A stretch of 64,000 bases of DNA. Source: an uncultured bacterium. GTDB taxonomy: Bacteria; Patescibacteriota; Minisyncoccia; Phycocordibacterales; CAIZLB01. Of the stretch, positions 8,584 through 47,621 are shown in pieces. Every line of letters starts with the position of its first letter. The stretch's first letter is position 1. The notes under the pieces were generated by a model that saw nothing but the letters and a program-made list of their open reading frames with translations, was not told where the DNA came from and did no database searches. Made by a program: the position numbers and the translations under genes. The stretch is taken from the NCBI GenBank assembly GCA_903848795.1, contig CAINHC010000001.1, positions 14,915 to 78,914 of the forward strand, given 5' to 3'.

Positions 8584-8778
8584 GTCAGAAGACTAACACA
8601 AATGGCCGATATGAGCAAATTTGGGGTCAGGCGATCCTCGATCGTAGTGGCGACTACCCCGAATCGCAAAAAAGTGTGTTGTAATTTGAGGGTACACCCA
8701 TGTTTGAACCATCAAGCCCCATAATATGCAATTAAATGTGATGCTTAAAAATTCCCTAATTACAACACATTTTTTGCT

Positions 8779-41982: not shown

Positions 41983-42261
41983 ATGTATAGAATATTTTAT
42001 ACCAACAATTTTAAGAAACAATTGGCAAAAGTCTTGTCATCTGGAAGATATACGGAATCTGAGGTTAATGATGTTATTAATACATTGGCCATGGGAAAGA
42101 TGCTAGATGTGAGGTTTAAGAATCATAAATTAAGTGGTGAATATACTGGTTTTTATGAATGTCATATTCGCCCAGATCTACTGCTGATTTACGAAAAAGA
42201 CAATATTAACATGATATTAACAGCAATATCTATTGGTAGTCACTCGGAATTATTTGGCTAA
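41983..42261 (+). CDS. yafQ: YafQ/RelE family mRNA interferase toxin
   Basis: …HKLSGEYTGFYECHIRPDLLLIYEKDNINMILTAISIGSHSELFG parallels YafQ (…WKGYRDAHVEPDWILIY…RTGTHAALFG). Start set at MYRIFYTNNFKKQLAK. Confidence 0.7.
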   Translation: MYRIFYTNNFKKQLAKVLSSGRYTESEVNDVINTLAMGKMLDVRFKNHKLSGEYTGFYECHIRPDLLLIYEKDNINMILTAISIGSHSELFG

Positions 42262-42632
42262 AAGCCTCCGTCTAAATACTCCTTAATTCTTGATTTGTCT
42301 TCATTCTCTGATTCACCCTTAAAGTATATTTCGATAAAATCCACCGTATTATTCACAACATGGTAAGCATAAATAATACGAATACCGCTTTGTACACCAA
42401 AACCCTTAAGAGCTTTGCATGCAAATTTCCTAATCTTACAAACCTTCAGTTCATTGGTGCAAAAACTTGGAATTAGTTCGACTGAGTTATTATCTATTTT
42501 TTGCAAATGAAATAACTCGATTGCGTTCTTTTTAACAACTTCAATATCACCCTCAAGCGTTCTAAATTTCTTGAGCAATCTTTTCAAATCTTTATCAAAA
42601 ACTGGTGTATTTTTATAAGTTATCAAGTTCAT
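42258..42632 (-). CDS. RelE/ParE-like toxin (downstream of Panacea-domain antitoxin)
   Basis: …ALKGFGVQSGIRIIYAYHVVNNTVDFIEIYFKGE resembles the RelE/ParE C-terminal beta-sheet consensus. Start set at MNLITYK to limit overlap with the upstream gene to ~20 nt. Confidence 0.5.
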   Translation of the reverse strand: MNLITYKNTPVFDKDLKRLLKKFRTLEGDIEVVKKNAIELFHLQKIDNNSVELIPSFCTNELKVCKIRKFACKALKGFGVQSGIRIIYAYHVVNNTVDFIEIYFKGESENEDKSRIKEYLDGGF

Positions 42633-43401
42633 ATTCTCTAACGGAAGTATTCTTTGTACGATAAAACACTGACTCATAGGATAAAGGTTGACCATATAGA
42701 GCGGTAATCCACGGAACATCCTCATGGGAATAATTACTCAGTTCAACTGCGGATTTATCTGAAAGACGAGAAATAACCTCATCAATATGCTTTATTTCAT
42801 TGGCATTTAATACAGAGATGTCGGACGCTCTTCGTGGTAAATACTTTGTTTGTTCATGTAGAAAGTACTTACTCTTGACTGTCTCAAGCTCCCCCTTGGA
42901 CTCCATCAATTTTACAATTTCCTTAAACTCTACTGGAGTTGGTCCAAAATGGTTCTTAATATATGTTGCTCCAATTAGCTGTTCTTCAAATTTTTCATAA
43001 TAGTCAAAATCAATAAAATAAAGGAGTTTATACAAAACAGTCATTCCCACATTGGACTTACTTCCAACTTTTTCTAGGACATACAGAAGCACCTCTTTAA
43101 ACTTCTTTAGATTTTTTTGCGGTACATCAATACGAATTTCTTGTTTTTCTTTCTTCTTGGATTCATTTGATTCATCAGATATATATACCTTAACATCTGA
43201 AGTTTTTTTACCAGAAATAAGATCTTCTAGAGAAATATTAAAAATCTCAGCGATCTTACTCGCCTCTCCGACGGTTAGCTCTTTTGCCCCTTTTTCGACC
43301 TCTATATAACTTGCTCTTGAAATACCAATTTTTTCAGCAACAAAAGCCTGAGAGACGCCTTGGTTGTTTCTAAGTTCTATTAAAAATTTGCCTTTAATCA
43401 T
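42613..43401 (-). CDS. XRE-family HTH plus Panacea (DUF4065) domain antitoxin
   Basis: N-terminal HTH (LRNNQGVSQAFVAEKIGISRASYIEVEKG). C-terminal LYKLLYFIDFDYYEKFEEQLIGATYIKNHFGPTP matches DUF4065/Panacea. Confidence 0.7.
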   Translation of the reverse strand: MIKGKFLIELRNNQGVSQAFVAEKIGISRASYIEVEKGAKELTVGEASKIAEIFNISLEDLISGKKTSDVKVYISDESNESKKKEKQEIRIDVPQKNLKKFKEVLLYVLEKVGSKSNVGMTVLYKLLYFIDFDYYEKFEEQLIGATYIKNHFGPTPVEFKEIVKLMESKGELETVKSKYFLHEQTKYLPRRASDISVLNANEIKHIDEVISRLSDKSAVELSNYSHEDVPWITALYGQPLSYESVFYRTKNTSVREYELDNL

Positions 43402-43663: not shown

Positions 43664-44212
43664 TTATTCTGTAGCTGTAGCCTCCTCTGCTGTTGCCTCT
43701 ACTGCCTCTACTACTTCCACCTCAGGCTCTAGCACGGCTGTTGCAGCTTCCTCTGCTTCTAGTCTTGCAGCTTCTGCTTTAGTTAGATGAGATGAATCAC
43801 GCTTTGTCATTTCCATCTTCATTCTCTTACTAATTTCCTTAGCCGCTTTGTCTCTAATGTAGTAAAGCTTAGCACGACGAACCTTGGCACGCTTTGTAAC
43901 TTCTATTTTATCAATATTAGGTGAGAACAACGGGAAGATTCTTTCTACTCCATAGCCTCCTGAAACCTTTCTAACGGTAAAAGTACCTCCAGCTTCACTT
44001 CCATGCTTTCTAGCAAGAACAAGACCCTCAAAAACCTGAAGACGAGTCTTGCCTTTTTCTTGAATTTTTTGATACACCTTAACCGTATCGCCTACGCGCA
44101 TATCAAAATCCTTTCTAGTAGCATCTGTTTTAGCCACCTTAACCTCCTTTTTAACTGTTTTTATAGCTGCTGTCATAGGGAGCAATATAGCAGAGATGCT
44201 GGGTTTTTGCAA
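43664..44212 (-). CDS. rplS: 50S ribosomal protein L19 with Glu/Ala-rich C-terminal extension
   Basis: [36 protein letters not shown]…[28 protein letters not shown]…KLYYIRD matches L19. ~65-aa acidic tail. Confidence 0.85.
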
Positions 44213-44223
44213 ATACGACGCGA

Positions 44224-44319
44224 CCGCCTCTCAGCCCACCCAAGAGCACGCCAATTCTCTGCTGAGAATTGGCTCTGCTCACTGCAGTTCGCAAGTCTCT
44301 TGGGTGGGCTGAGAGGCGG
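44224..44319. repeat. GC-rich perfect 23-bp-stem hairpin with nested TTC-TGCT-GAA mini-hairpin (rplS leader / alr 3' region)
   Basis: CCGCCTCTCAGCCCACCCAAGAG (44224-44246) is the exact reverse complement of 44297-44319. The 50-nt loop contains CCAATTCTCTGCTGAGAATTGG. Homologous loop with different stem at 46681-46794. Confidence 0.7.
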
Positions 44320-44356
44320 CCTTGCTGTTGTGGTAAAACGAGCATTTAATACAAAA

Positions 44357-45499
44357 TCAGACGACAATTCTTTTGATTAAGGGGTTGATTCTGGTGACAA
44401 GCTCATAAATGGACATATTTGCCAAATTAGCCATATTTACCAAGCTATTTTTGAAATTATCATCCAGACCAACTATTTCAACCTCATCACCAACCTTTAT
44501 ATCTGAAACCCTTGTAGCATCCACCATTATTATGTCCATACAAACGTTGCCCAACACCTTACAAGCCATGCCTCTTACATAAACATAGCCAATTCTAGAA
44601 AGAGCACGAGGAAAACCGTGCCAATAACCTATTGGTAAAATAGCTATCTTGGTATCTTTATTTAGTCTTTCAGATAAATCATAACCGACCCCCTCTCCCT
44701 TTTTGACATCCTTAATCTCTGCAACAATTGTTTTCCACGCCAGTACTGGCTTTAGCTTTAAGCTCTTAGATTTATATTTCCTTGCTTCTGTAGACGGCCA
44801 CAAGCCATACATTCCAATGCCAACCCTAATCATGTCGAAATGGGCAGTTTTATAAATCAAACCGCCACCAGTTGCAGATGCATGTCTGATTGGTGTTATA
44901 TTAAATTGACTCGACAAAAAATCAGCCCATTCTGTAAATTCAGCTATCTGCTTGTTGGTGTGAACCTTATCGTTTGGATCTTTTGCAGATGAAAAATGGG
45001 TAAAAATACCCTCAATCTCAACCTTAGACAAAATATTCCTAAGAGTGGAAGACACCTCGGGTATTTGGTTCACGCTGAAACCATGCCGATGCATCCCAGT
45101 ATCCACCTTTAAATGAATCTTTAGTTTTTTGCTAAATTTAGTATTTTGAATTTCTTTAATAGTTTCAAAGGAAGACGCAGCTACACTCAAATCGTTCTCC
45201 TCTGCCACCGCCAACATCTCTGGTAAGACATATCCAAGAACAAGAATCGGTTTCTTAACCCCCTCTTTTCTCAAAGCAACACCTTCAACAACGGAATCTA
45301 CACCAAACCAATCAAGATCTTTATTATTCTTTACAATATTCGCAAAATCCCAAAGACCGTGTCCATAGGCATTAGATTTAACAACGGACATTATTTTGAC
45401 ATTATTGCCAACCAAATCACGAAATGATTTCAAATTATTTAATACTGAATTTTTGTCTATTTCAATCCAAGTTCGAAGTCCCTTAGTTTTACTTTTCAT
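44357..45499 (-). CDS. alr: alanine racemase
   Basis: PLP-lysine motif VVKSNAYGHG. Alr N- and C-terminal domains. 380 aa. Confidence 0.85.
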   Translation of the reverse strand: MKSKTKGLRTWIEIDKNSVLNNLKSFRDLVGNNVKIMSVVKSNAYGHGLWDFANIVKNNKDLDWFGVDSVVEGVALRKEGVKKPILVLGYVLPEMLAVAEENDLSVAASSFETIKEIQNTKFSKKLKIHLKVDTGMHRHGFSVNQIPEVSSTLRNILSKVEIEGIFTHFSSAKDPNDKVHTNKQIAEFTEWADFLSSQFNITPIRHASATGGGLIYKTAHFDMIRVGIGMYGLWPSTEARKYKSKSLKLKPVLAWKTIVAEIKDVKKGEGVGYDLSERLNKDTKIAILPIGYWHGFPRALSRIGYVYVRGMACKVLGNVCMDIIMVDATRVSDIKVGDEVEIVGLDDNFKNSLVNMANLANMSIYELVTRINPLIKRIVV

Positions 45500-45504
45500 T
45501 ATTA

Positions 45505-46386
45505 CTATAATATCGCGTCTGTCGCTTTTTTGAAATCAGCTGGAAGTTCTACCTCGAATTCGCTCATTTCTCCGCTCACCCCACCTTCGTCACCCACTAA
45601 TGCGTTGGATGGTAAAATTAGCTTTAATTTGCGAGCATGAAGCGCTAGGCGATCAAAACCCAAAGCCTTAGGGTGATTCTCGGCATACAAACTATCGCCC
45701 ACCACAGGGTGATTTATGGCCTTAAAATGAACTCTAATCTGATGCGTTCTTCCAGTTAGTGGATGAACCTCAACAAAAGTAAACATCAAGGGTATTTTGG
45801 AATTACCTTTGCCAACCATTATTGCACCTCTCTTCATCACAGGATCTCCATCAAATCTTTTTAGCACTTTATATTCTGTCACCGCGGGACGAAGCTCACC
45901 TCGAGAAAAACGTTGGGCACTCCACTTTCTAAAGTCCCCCTTACTTCTTCCGATGTGTCTGTCTATTACACCCTCATCCTCTTTAACAAAACCCCACACA
46001 AAAGTATTGTATGTTTTTTTGATTATATGATCCTGAAATTGTTTTTTAAGTATTTCAAAAGCCTCTTGATTTCTAGCCACAACCATAACGCCCGAGGTTT
46101 CTTTATCTAGCCTATGAACAACACCTGGTCTTCTTAAAATTGTAGGTTCTTTGTTTGGACCCCTGCCGATTGTCATAGGCTCACCCACATCCTTAGTCTC
46201 TGGAAATTCTTCTTCAATAAAATCACATAAGGTTTTTTCCTTTGTTTTACCATCGCCGTGAACCATAATGCCGGCGGGTTTATTTATGATCAAAACGTCC
46301 TTATCTTGGTATATTATTGATAACATTACCGTTATCATACTCGATATTGATATTATTTCAATAATAGTATATATTATGGGAACCAA
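45505..46386 (-). CDS. RluA-family pseudouridine synthase
   Basis: …LIINKPAGIMVHG… and catalytic HRLDKETSGVMVVAR. True start may be an internal Met since no S4 domain is present. Confidence 0.8.
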   Translation of the reverse strand: MVPIIYTIIEIISISSMITVMLSIIYQDKDVLIINKPAGIMVHGDGKTKEKTLCDFIEEEFPETKDVGEPMTIGRGPNKEPTILRRPGVVHRLDKETSGVMVVARNQEAFEILKKQFQDHIIKKTYNTFVWGFVKEDEGVIDRHIGRSKGDFRKWSAQRFSRGELRPAVTEYKVLKRFDGDPVMKRGAIMVGKGNSKIPLMFTFVEVHPLTGRTHQIRVHFKAINHPVVGDSLYAENHPKALGFDRLALHARKLKLILPSNALVGDEGGVSGEMSEFEVELPADFKKATDAIL

Positions 46387-46390
46387 ATGA

Positions 46391-46463
46391 GGGCGATTAG
46401 CTCAGTTGGTAGAGCAACTCATTTACACTGAGAAGGTCAGGGGTTCGAGTCCCTTATCGCCCA
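46391..46463 (+). tRNA. tRNA-Val (TAC)
   Basis: Acceptor GGGCGAT/ATCGCCC, D-arm GCTC-AGTTGGTA-GAGC, anticodon loop TTTACAC, T-loop TTCGAGT. Confidence 0.85.
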
Positions 46464-46473
46464 CAAAACAAAA

Positions 46474-46501
46474 ATAACAGGAATTTATTCCTGTTATTTT
46501 T
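46474..46501 (+). terminator. terminator after tRNA-Val
   Basis: AACAGGAATttaTTCCTGTT + TTTTTCG. Confidence 0.55.
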
Positions 46502-46652
46502 CGTTTGTGTTGGGGCGATAGGAGGTGCCTTGAGTCACCTCCGCAAGGGACGAGAAAAGCTTTGCTATATTTTCGAGAATCTGAAAGATTCGAGAAAATT
46601 GCAAAGGTGTACTGGGGCTGCGATTCAGCAGAATCGCCTACTGGGTAAGCCC

Positions 46653-46672
46653 CGAGTCCCTTATCGCCCACA
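46653..46672. repeat. direct repeat of the tRNA-Val 3' end (CGAGTCCCTTATCGCCCACA), 20/20 identical to 46446-46465
   Basis: Exact 20-bp copy of T-loop-to-3'-end sequence located 187 bp downstream of the tRNA, an att-like arrangement. Confidence 0.75.
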
Positions 46673-46680
46673 ATTCACTC

Positions 46681-46794
46681 AAAACTCCGCTTCTATTGAA
46701 TGCACACCAATTTTCTGCTGAAAATTCGATTTCCGTCGACAGGAAATCGCCCGCTCGTTGCAACTCGCAAGGCATTCAATAGAAGCGGAGTTTT
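46681..46794. repeat. second perfect 23-bp-stem hairpin with homologous loop (TTC-TGCT-GAA mini-hairpin plus GATTTCC-GTCGACA-GGAAATC palindrome)
   Basis: AAAACTCCGCTTCTATTGAATGC (46681-46703) is the exact reverse complement of 46772-46794. The loop contains CCAATTTTCTGCTGAAAATTCG and ends …CTCGCAAG like the 44224 element. Confidence 0.7.
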
Positions 46795-46950
46795 TCGTTC
46801 ATGGGTATTTTGTAAAAAAATTCGATGATTGGAATTATTTTATCACCCTGCTTTCGCTTTTGAAGCCGAACACTTATCTTATTTTATAAGTAAAAAACTT
46901 CCAAAAAAATCCTCCGCCACAAAAGATAATATCCTTATCCAATGAACGAA

Positions 46951-47073
46951 TTTGTGCTCTCGGTAGGAATCTTCCCCTACGGGGACGGTACAGGTTTCGT
47001 ATTGTGCTCGCTATGCTTCGCACAATATACTCAACCTTTTCGATTCCTACACGCAAGCCGATCAATCGGCTTG
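46951..47073. repeat. tRNA-Arg(TCT)-linked structured insert plus 22-bp copy of the tRNA 3' end (46951-46972), ~90% identical (inverted) to 52553-52685
   Basis: ATTTGTGCTCTCGGTAGGAATC at 46951-46972 equals 47103-47124 (reverse complement of the tRNA 3' end). Intervening sequence forms nested stems (GTAGGAATC/GATTCCTAC, AGGTT/AACCT, TATTGTGC/GCACAATA, CCCC-GTA-GGGG). Confidence 0.7.
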
Positions 47074-47107
47074 CTCTCGAGCCCAAAATTAAAACGCCTT
47101 TCGGCGT

Positions 47108-47179
47108 TTTAATATTTGTGCTCTCGGTAGGAATCGAACCTACATTAACGGCTTAGAAGTCCGCAGTTCTATCCATTGA
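47108..47179 (-). tRNA. tRNA-Arg (TCT), with A31-G39 mismatch in anticodon stem
   Basis: Acceptor GCTCTTG/CGAGAGC, D-arm GTTC-AATGGATA-GAAC, anticodon loop CTTCTAA, T-arm GTAGG-TTCGATT-CCTAC. Terminator hairpin AAAACGCCgaaaGGCGTTTT follows on the minus strand. Confidence 0.65.
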
Positions 47180-47213
47180 ACTACAAGAGCATGCATGTAC
47201 AATAGCATATTTT

Positions 47214-47621
47214 TTAAATTTTACCAGCCCCAGACACCACCCCCGCTCCAGCAGGGCTGGTCGCTGTATTGTTGGTGGTTGATGCATTCGTTGTAGTTGC
47301 CACCACGCCAACCTTAGCACCTGCCGTGGTCGCAGTAGCGACCGTCATCCCCGCCCAAGATGCCTCCTTGCCTTGATACTTCTCAATCACGCTTTTAATC
47401 TCCGCTTCCTTGTCCTTAACTGGAACAAAATCTGTCGCCTCGCCAGAATCAGACATTAAAGATGTCTGAACAGAAAAATAGAAAAAATAACTCCAAATAA
47501 AAACTCCAAGAATAATAGAAAAAGCTACAACCATAATTCTTTGCCAATCTTGGACTGGTCGACTGCCGAATATATACATATTCCTTAATTTATTTCCAAA
47601 TTGTCCTAGTTCTATATTCAT
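47214..47621 (-). CDS. hypothetical membrane protein (downstream of pilM-pilN-pilO, possibly pilus-assembly associated)
   Basis: 135 aa with one TM (IMVVAFSIILGVFIWSYFFYF) and a Thr/Ala-rich C-terminus. Position analogous to pilP, but no homology recognised. Confidence 0.35.
   Translation of the reverse strand: MNIELGQFGNKLRNMYIFGSRPVQDWQRIMVVAFSIILGVFIWSYFFYFSVQTSLMSDSGEATDFVPVKDKEAEIKSVIEKYQGKEASWAGMTVATATTAGAKVGVVATTTNASTTNNTATSPAGAGVVSGAGKI

Follow-up and report, generated by a model that had tools for sequence, protein, structure and literature searches.

Two hairpins with perfect 23-bp stems, W1 and W2, belong to a previously undescribed family of low-copy, T-shaped palindromic elements of 95–115 bp, which is restricted to one Patescibacteria clade of Paceibacteria/Parcubacteria type. 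Both were found in the window, the whole 64,000-nucleotide stretch of bacterial chromosome (about 37% G+C) analysed here. The element consists of a closing stem of 23–31 bp carrying a conserved tip of about 50 nt. The tip is composed of a CACR junction, a 9–10-bp hairpin (H1) with a TGCT loop, a short hairpin around an 8-nt palindrome (ACTGCAGT or GTTGCAAC), and a TCGCAAG junction. The reading preferred here, to which we assign a probability of about 0.4, is that the family is a REP-like structured DNA element, in which the arms of the stem are kept matched by DNA-level copy-correction and the tip is recognised by a putative factor.

In W1, the 5' arm CCGCCTCTCAGCCCACCCAAGAG (44224–44246; the coordinates of W1 and W2 refer to the plus strand) is the perfect 23-nt complement of the 3' arm (44297–44319). 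The 50-nt tip between them (44247–44296), supported by its fold, by the covariation of H1 and by its identity to the tips of other copies, starts with the junction CACG (44247–44250). This is followed by H1, CCAATTCTC-TGCT-GAGAATTGG (44251–44272), and by CT. The second-hairpin region (H2), CTGC-TCACT-GCAG (44275–44287), has the 8-nt palindrome ACTGCAGT within it (44281–44288), and the tip ends with the junction TCGCAAGT (44289–44296). In W2, the 5' arm AAAACTCCGCTTCTATTGAATGC (46681–46703) and its 23-nt perfect complement (46772–46794) enclose a tip of 68 nt (46704–46771). This tip starts with ACA and contains H1, CCAATTTTC-TGCT-GAAAATTCG (46707–46728), an extra hairpin (H3), CGATTTCC-GTCGACA-GGAAATCG (46727–46749), followed by CCCGCTC, and the 8-nt palindrome GTTGCAAC (46757–46764), followed by TCGCAAG (46765–46771). 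In other words, the W2 loop is the W1 layout plus one more hairpin, and the loops of both close with TCGCAAG. The H3 module is also present in L080 and L085 (L numbers denote loci other than W1 and W2). The spacing of the arms is 50 nt in W1 and 68 nt in W2, and both stems are 100% complementary, exactly as a sequence-only reading of this DNA had reported.

The resemblance between W1 and W2 is not a product of chance. The window contains seven inverted repeats of at least 16 nt, and W1 and W2 are the only perfect 23-nt ones. The loop motif CCAATTYTCTGCTGARAATT has exactly two plus-strand matches in the window, namely W1 and W2, against an expectation of 0.05, and none of 100 shuffled sequences reached this count; the homology of the two loops, which had been claimed from their common layout, is thereby confirmed. 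Folding energies of −73 and −53 kcal/mol were obtained (z = −12.7 and −9.8 relative to shuffles), and each strand of both elements folds far better than shuffled sequence (z = −8.4 to −12.7). The W1 tip is identical to the tips of L059 and L071 at 50 of 50 positions and to those of L011 and L060 at 45–47 of 50. No second copy of the W1 arm (up to three mismatches allowed) or of the W2 arm is present in the window.

Contigs identical to the window occur in MAGs from lake metagenomes (e.g., GCA_903994605.1), and the homologues of the window Alr and of S1 proteins are labelled Paceibacterota, Parcubacteria or Patescibacteria. The neighbours of W1 are alr (44357–45499, minus strand) and rplS (43664–44176, minus strand), so that W1 as written is on the strand opposite to both. 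It is located 37 nt from the stop codon of alr and 11 nt from the −35 box of the sigma-70-type rplS promoter, TTGCAA-17-TATATT with an upstream TG (44212–44184, minus strand), which is outside the element. In the relative L076, the Alr of which is 81% identical, the alr–rplS spacer is 64 nt long and has no hairpin; from TATTTGCAAAAACCC onward, the rplS promoter included, the sequences of L076 and the window agree at almost every base. The corresponding spacer in a second relative is 66 nt. Because the rplS promoter is downstream of W1, and is conserved in the hairpin-less L076, W1 belongs to the 3' flank of alr and is outside any rplS leader; the proposal that it might form part of the rplS 5' UTR has to be abandoned. 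W2 lies between tRNA-Val (plus strand) and tRNA-Arg (minus strand), within about 450 nt missing from the relative L075. A terminator scan called neither W1 nor W2 as an intrinsic terminator. A run of five T residues follows the stem at W2 alone; there is none at W1, L060 or L071.

A wider scan for the tip motif added about 20 further copies in related Patescibacteria genomes and metagenomes, and the family is thus larger than the pair first noticed. When representative genomes were scanned with the H1 motif, 50 loci were obtained, of which 48 were chance matches in unrelated taxa, mostly intragenic. The two real ones were L011, from a MAG labelled Saccharibacteria, and L018, from a lake MAG. 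The metagenome scan gave type A copies, having W1-like tips (L059, L060, L062, which is identical to L011, L064, L069 and L071), and type B copies (L063, L067, L068, L070, L073 and L074). The type B tip has H1 in common with type A, whereas its 3' half differs; its inner stem is conserved and bulged. One decayed additional copy was found by nhmmer (L071b; positions 1524–1594 of L071), and a covariance model built from ten copies (R1) detected nothing further in the window and 26 related loci (about 230 kb). Each representative genome had one exact match to the motif, and the window has two copies in 64 kb. Therefore, the copy number seems to be low, 1–3 per genome as far as visible. All known copies are intergenic, and across the family they occur in both orientations relative to the neighbouring genes. 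Seven contigs of the same species were 99.99–100% identical, so that they are uninformative on polymorphism within the population.

Searches for known relatives or partners of the element were negative. Rfam at the gathering threshold returned only tRNAs over the window, and at E values up to 10 over 43800–47400 the overlaps with the element were only chance matches to microRNA precursors. The tip motif is absent from IMG/VR, and neither phage nor plasmid records contain the tip sequence. When 30 flanking proteins were scanned with Pfam, only housekeeping and toxin–antitoxin genes were recognised, no protein gene consistently accompanies the copies in the flanks scanned, and no transposase, RAYT, integrase or other partner gene was seen in about 270 kb inspected. 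No description of a Patescibacteria hairpin or MITE of this sort was found in the literature. It should be mentioned that two independent Logan assemblies of the same species (L005 and L007, equal to the window up to 44272) stop exactly at the 3' end of the W1 H1. This looks like breakage by the assembler at the palindrome, which would leave such elements under-represented or cut in short-read assemblies.

At the rpsA locus, one copy could be traced through a clade. The series was gathered by an S1 search and contig look-ups. In L011 and L060, the element is directly upstream of the conserved promoter of rpsA, which encodes ribosomal protein S1. It is intact in L011 (24 of 24 bp paired), L060 (31 of 31) and L081 (29 of 31), and in L084 the arms are perfect (27 of 27) but the tip is altered. 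It is truncated or decayed in L077, L079, L080 and L085/L086, and absent from L078 and L082/L083. The promoter-side flank is conserved up to the arm, and the promoter-side arms can be aligned, having, for example, TATAATTT in common. This means that the element at rpsA was inherited and did not arise by repeated insertion. Together with the decayed L071b and the absence of W1 from L076, the series shows a family that is vertically persistent, now and then duplicated, and often decaying.

The orthologous arms at rpsA have 9–15 differences per 24–31 positions, and 76 of 77 such differences are mirrored by a Watson–Crick change on the opposite side. About half of the compensated changes are transversions, which do not pass through G-U intermediates. 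The orthologous tips have 5–12 differences; the H1 stem and the 8-nt palindrome account for all but 0–1 of them, and there all are compensated. The unpaired tip positions differ at 0–1 of 24, as against 8–12 differing paired positions. In the adjacent S1 gene, identity at four-fold degenerate sites is only 57%. The near-invariance of the unpaired tip at such divergence indicates that it is under purifying selection, with pairing being kept elsewhere in the element.

L077 and L078 are 98.5% identical outside an indel of 546 nt versus 40 nt, and the outer end of the arm is retained in L078. Since this indel splits genomes so close to each other, the locus upstream of rpsA is a hotspot at which small structured segments are gained and lost. 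From the promoter onward, L079 and L080 are 99.85% identical, whereas their upstream sequences are unrelated; between close strains, homology often ends at the element. Other G+C-rich hairpins, such as CCCCGCCATTTATTTGACGGGGG and GCCCCGCTCACGCGGGGC, were also observed upstream of rpsA (L077, 9431–9976; L078, 1–392).

In an alignment of ten copies, changes on both sides were found in all 23 pairs of the closing stem and in 5 of the 9 pairs of H1. The structure was 92.5% paired, compared with 36–46% when the 3' partners were slid by 1–3 columns. The mean identity of arms between loci, counted without gaps from the tip, was 0.40, compared with 0.27 for composition-preserving shuffles (0 of 2000 as high). 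When the six innermost bases were left out, the identity was 37% compared with 30% (1 of 2000 shuffles). This residual similarity across loci makes the whole hairpin the unit of descent, and the arms have since diverged almost to saturation. The stems had been described as completely different. This holds for W1 and W2, which in register are identical at 5 of 23 positions; across the family, the arms are highly diverged homologues. Use of the arms as guides or spacers was considered and rejected: neither arm has an exact match in IMG/VR, and the arms at rpsA are orthologous.

The arms change at about the neutral rate, and nearly all of the changes are mirrored by a Watson–Crick change opposite. 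Mismatches in the stems are few, occur on both strands and include transversions, and G-U is not in excess on either strand. A strand test by G-U versus A-C mismatches, made by eye on the imperfect stems, gave seven for one strand, two for the other and two transversions, which is not significant. In H2, neither of two alternative 4-bp helices covaries on the strand first written; the consistent feature is the 8-nt palindrome. One covarying unit, ACTGCAGT versus GTTGCAAC, is loop-less and cannot fold on itself as RNA. The perfect 27-bp arms around the altered tip of L084 are a further point for DNA over RNA. Because of the neutral rate, the transversions, the lack of G-U excess, the loop-less palindrome and the arms of L084, the substitution pattern seems to favour DNA-level maintenance over RNA-level selection. 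The compensatory covariation described in the sequence-only reading is thus real in that pairing is kept through double changes, whereas its attribution to selection on an RNA is not what the pattern leans to.

A copy-correcting process acting on DNA within the palindrome, either intra-strand template switching or hairpin-templated repair, would mirror the changes of the arms in the manner suggested by these substitution patterns. A new mutation in one arm would be either erased or copied across, and as a result the arms would drift neutrally yet stay complementary. In E. coli and yeast, template switching is established as a process that makes the arms of an inverted repeat uniform (PMC7202029, PMC8604942), and such a process at quasipalindromes would yield matched, neutrally drifting arms as seen here. 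It is a mutational process rather than an element family, and it accounts for the arms but not for the conserved tip. The purifying selection on the unpaired nucleotides of the tip might be due to their being read by a putative trans-acting factor, which could be a structure-specific DNA enzyme like those moving REP-type elements. The element would spread rarely, persist long at a locus and decay in some lineages. Its effect on the host may, as a guess, be that of a transcript-end or insulating hairpin. Against the REP-like reading, no two copies have common arms; this and the low copy number mean that there is no sign of recent transposition. Relatives without the element may have lost an unstable palindrome by deletion, instead of never having received an insertion, as in L078, where the outer arm end remains.

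Five independent type A loci end 0–11 nt upstream of a housekeeping −35 box. The downstream genes are rplS for W1, rpsA for the L011 group, rpsL for L018, rpsP for L064 and secG for L059 (promoter TTGACT-17-TATACT). The tip as written is antisense to the gene in all five, and this single orientation is a hint that the element has a function for the host and is not purely selfish. These copies fill the short stretch that separates the end of one transcription unit from the −35 box of a strong housekeeping promoter. The adjacency is partly forced, because compact genomes tolerate insertions almost nowhere but in the gap between stop codon and promoter. W2, L069, L071 and the type B copies depart from this layout. 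On neither strand is a conserved promoter for the element itself evident.

The position of the type A copies would be explained if the element were a DNA-level promoter-upstream device, that is, a cruciform-prone palindrome with protein-binding dyads (H1 and the 8-nt palindrome), which could serve as a buffer of supercoiling, as a binding site for a regulator of translation-apparatus genes or as an insulator of the promoter. The fixed distance range and orientation, the retention of the position before rpsA across genomes at 57% four-fold identity, and the dyad symmetry throughout the element, the loop-less palindrome included, are consistent with such a device. However, it is considered distinctly unlikely: the adjacency is partly forced, as described above, W2, L069 and most of the type B copies are arranged otherwise, and the close relatives L076, L078 and L082 do without the element at the same promoters. 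In addition, the half-sites of H1 covary within the clade and differ within one genome (W1 versus W2), a variation that would be hard to reconcile with recognition by a fixed DNA-binding protein. Disfavoured, and of slight probability, is the reading in which a small mobile core enters the tips of existing long hairpins such as terminators, or creates an inverted target duplication, so that the arms are local. The arms of W1 and W2 are mutually unrelated, as this would predict; those of W2 start with A4 and end with T5, like a bidirectional terminator, and the corresponding place in L075 is taken by an ordinary terminator. The bare hairpin (23-nt arms) after tRNA-Val and a 25-nt H1-like insertion inside the loop of an existing hairpin, both described below, point the same way. 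The residual similarity between the arms of different loci, the orthologous arms at rpsA and the lack of any repeat of the arm sequences elsewhere in the window argue against it. Insertion into an existing palindrome, or an inverted target duplication, had also been rejected on the ground that the empty alr–rplS site of L076 has neither a palindrome nor a clear copy of an arm; the idea was then overtaken by the homology of the arms.

A serious rival, which we consider somewhat less likely than the REP-like reading, is that the family is one of structured RNAs. The three-way-junction tip of about 50 nt would then be a functional RNA or a protein-binding module, and the perfect stem would serve processing or stability, for example as a substrate of RNase III; the source would be the 3' end of the upstream transcript or a separate small RNA. 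Conserved unpaired nucleotides with covarying helices are also the textbook signature of a functional RNA. The strong covariation of the closing stem and H1, the confinement of orthologous tip differences to paired positions but for 0–1 of 24 unpaired ones, and the very stable fold of both strands all agree with this. On the strand of the neighbouring genes, the H2 helices UUGC/GCAR and YUGC/GCAG can be paired in both variants via U-G, whereas the same variants give C-A mismatches on the other strand. On the alr strand, W1 comes 37 nt past the alr stop codon, and W2 ends with a terminator-like T-run. On the other hand, Rfam gave no match even at E = 10, no promoter or terminator is conserved with the element, and the family orientation is mixed. 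The upstream gene is divergent at L060 and L081, where no transcription of the gene-sense strand is obvious. Stems of 23–31 bp almost without G-U, with many compensated transversions at about the neutral rate, would be unusual for RNA-level selection, and the inability of the 8-nt palindrome to self-fold as RNA, the still perfect arms beside the altered tip in L084 and the decay of the element in several lineages do not fit an RNA either.

When known systems are compared, no described family fits: MITE, REP/REPIN, attC, retron, intrinsic terminator and Rfam families each fail in at least one defining feature tested here. Bacterial MITEs (Correia/NEMIS, RUP, ERIC) are similar to the element in size, in being non-coding and intergenic, in giving hairpin RNA, in patchy presence and in modular sub-variants. 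They differ from it in having conserved terminal inverted repeats, a target-site duplication, a parent insertion sequence and a higher copy number. In the present family, the arms are about 40% identical between loci, none of 13 copies has flanking direct repeats, there is no near-identical multicopy set, and no transposase adjoins any copy. The element is therefore not a conventional MITE, in agreement with what had been suspected. REP/REPIN sequences, which are moved by RAYT, a Y1 HUH transposase, are closer in several respects. They are short, non-coding, intergenic hairpin palindromes, long-lived at orthologous sites, with pairing kept and no target-site duplication, and, like the element as we read it, they rely on a factor encoded elsewhere. 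In REPINs, however, the arms are conserved and recognised and the loop is free, whereas here the tip is conserved and the arms are free, so that in its arms the element departs from REP; REPINs number tens to hundreds per genome, compared with 1–3, and no RAYT gene was seen in the scanned flanks.

The inverted terminal repeat of parvoviruses such as AAV is a T-shaped hairpin of the form A-B-B'-C-C'-A', which a site-specific HUH enzyme recognises in its folded, single-stranded form. As in the element, two small palindromes meet at a three-way junction that is closed by a long stem. Only the shape is alike: the AAV repeat is the end of a linear viral genome, whereas the element is internal to a bacterial chromosome, does not resemble the viral repeat in sequence and is accompanied by no Rep gene. 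Integron attC sites also keep structure above sequence and are recognised as folded single strands in which unpaired bases matter. In attC, conserved boxes at the base of the stem accompany a variable centre, which is the reverse of the present arrangement; no attC boxes R''/L'' or L'/R' (GTTRRRY) are visible in the arms, and the neighbours are housekeeping genes, with no integrase or cassette array nearby. The RNase III stems flanking rRNAs are likewise long, fast-evolving and complementary, and they surround a conserved RNA. Unlike the stems of the element, they contain bulges as well as G-U pairs, and the RNAs inside them are large and have known promoters. An intrinsic terminator is a G+C-rich hairpin with a U-tract, and of the two uncalled hairpins W1 and W2 only W2 has a T5 run. 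The retron msr/msd is a non-coding RNA of 150–250 nt between a1/a2 repeats; the loop here is 50–68 nt, and the adjoining genes (alr, rplS, tRNAs, rpsA and similar) include no reverse transcriptase. Among the RNA families of Rfam, including hammerhead, twister, HEARO, 6S, SRP and Y RNA, none came near the gathering threshold. Structured intergenic palindromic repeats are thus a known kind of sequence; what is unusual is the combination of a conserved tip with free but matched arms, low copy number and position adjacent to promoters in Patescibacteria.

The spacer between tRNA-Val and tRNA-Arg, in which W2 lies, is a patchwork of small palindromic modules. Directly after tRNA-Val is a bare hairpin (46462–46509) with 23-nt arms that are 91% complementary, a 2-nt loop and A-rich and T-rich flanks, terminator-like on both strands; long hairpins without the conserved tip therefore also exist in this genome. 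Elsewhere in the window, an inverted repeat at 8669–8775 has 18-nt arms, 94% complementary, and a 71-nt spacer unrelated to the tip of W1 and W2. After tRNA-Val and its terminator comes a strongly folding region of about 165 nt (46510–46673, plus strand; z = −5.8 and −7.0), which ends with an exact 21-nt copy of the 3' end of tRNA-Val (46653–46673, equal to 46446–46466). Its 5' end, GGGGCGATAGG, pairs with this copy in the manner of an acceptor stem. By eye, the region is conserved almost base for base in L075 and L076, in which Alr is only 81–83% identical. It has no Rfam match, and it may be a tRNA-derived non-coding RNA.

Within this region, a 25-nt lineage-specific insertion (46620–46644, plus strand) that is absent from L075 and L076 carries an H1-like hairpin in inverse orientation, GCGATTC-AGCA-GAATCGC. 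The insertion sits in the loop of a conserved hairpin, GGGGC-TTACA-GCCCC; the loop of the hairpin that it carries is as in H1, and the stem resembles the H1 variant of L081. In the window, only three hairpins, this one included, combine a TGCT or AGCA loop with a stem of at least 7 bp. This suggests that the H1 module can occur alone, and the insertion is possibly related to the element. Upstream of recR in L069 (1275–1345), a tandemly duplicated unit TCTGCTGATTTCGACRCGATTTTTACRTTTAAAAATCG starts with a 10-bp hairpin, CGTCGAAATC-TGCT-GATTTCGACG, which has the H1 apex TCTGCTGA in common with the element and a different stem. On the other side of W2, 155 nt (46795–46949) that have no counterpart in L075 are bounded by an 8-nt inverted repeat, TCGTTCAT and ATGAACGA. 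Then two exact 22-nt copies of the 3' end of tRNA-Arg (46950–46971 and 47114–47135) bracket a hairpin-rich segment of 142 nt, which includes a terminator (47088–47113) and is missing in L075; the arrangement resembles a scar left by a small element that had integrated at the tRNA. Toxin–antitoxin genes lie shortly downstream of rplS and tRNA-Leu (42258–43401; L001, 8099–9850), comprising an HTH protein with a SocA/Panacea antitoxin-type protein, and YafQ paired with RelB. In L076 and the P0004 contig, YafQ/RelB is retained and the SocA gene is missing.

The family is an unusually clean natural case of a long inverted repeat in which the arms change at the neutral rate and complementarity remains perfect. 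It separates two things that are usually lumped together as "covariation", namely selection for a folded molecule and a mechanical process that homogenises the arms of a palindrome, and thus calls for caution in covariation-based discovery of RNAs. The conserved tip, for its part, would imply a factor that reads it. The genomes of Patescibacteria (candidate phyla radiation) are tiny and gene-dense, with almost no described non-coding elements, and a structured multi-locus element beside the promoters of ribosomal proteins offers a handle on their gene regulation or genome dynamics. A bolder reading, which we regard as rather unlikely, is that of a structure specific to Patescibacteria: a three-way-junction tip read by a putative dedicated factor, as RNA or folded single-stranded DNA, on a "self-proofreading" stem, in fixed orientation directly upstream of the promoters of the translation and secretion genes rplS, rpsA, rpsL, rpsP and secG, whose expression it would control or insulate. 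If this is true, that promoter-upstream structure would not be a selfish repeat but a regulatory device without a described counterpart.
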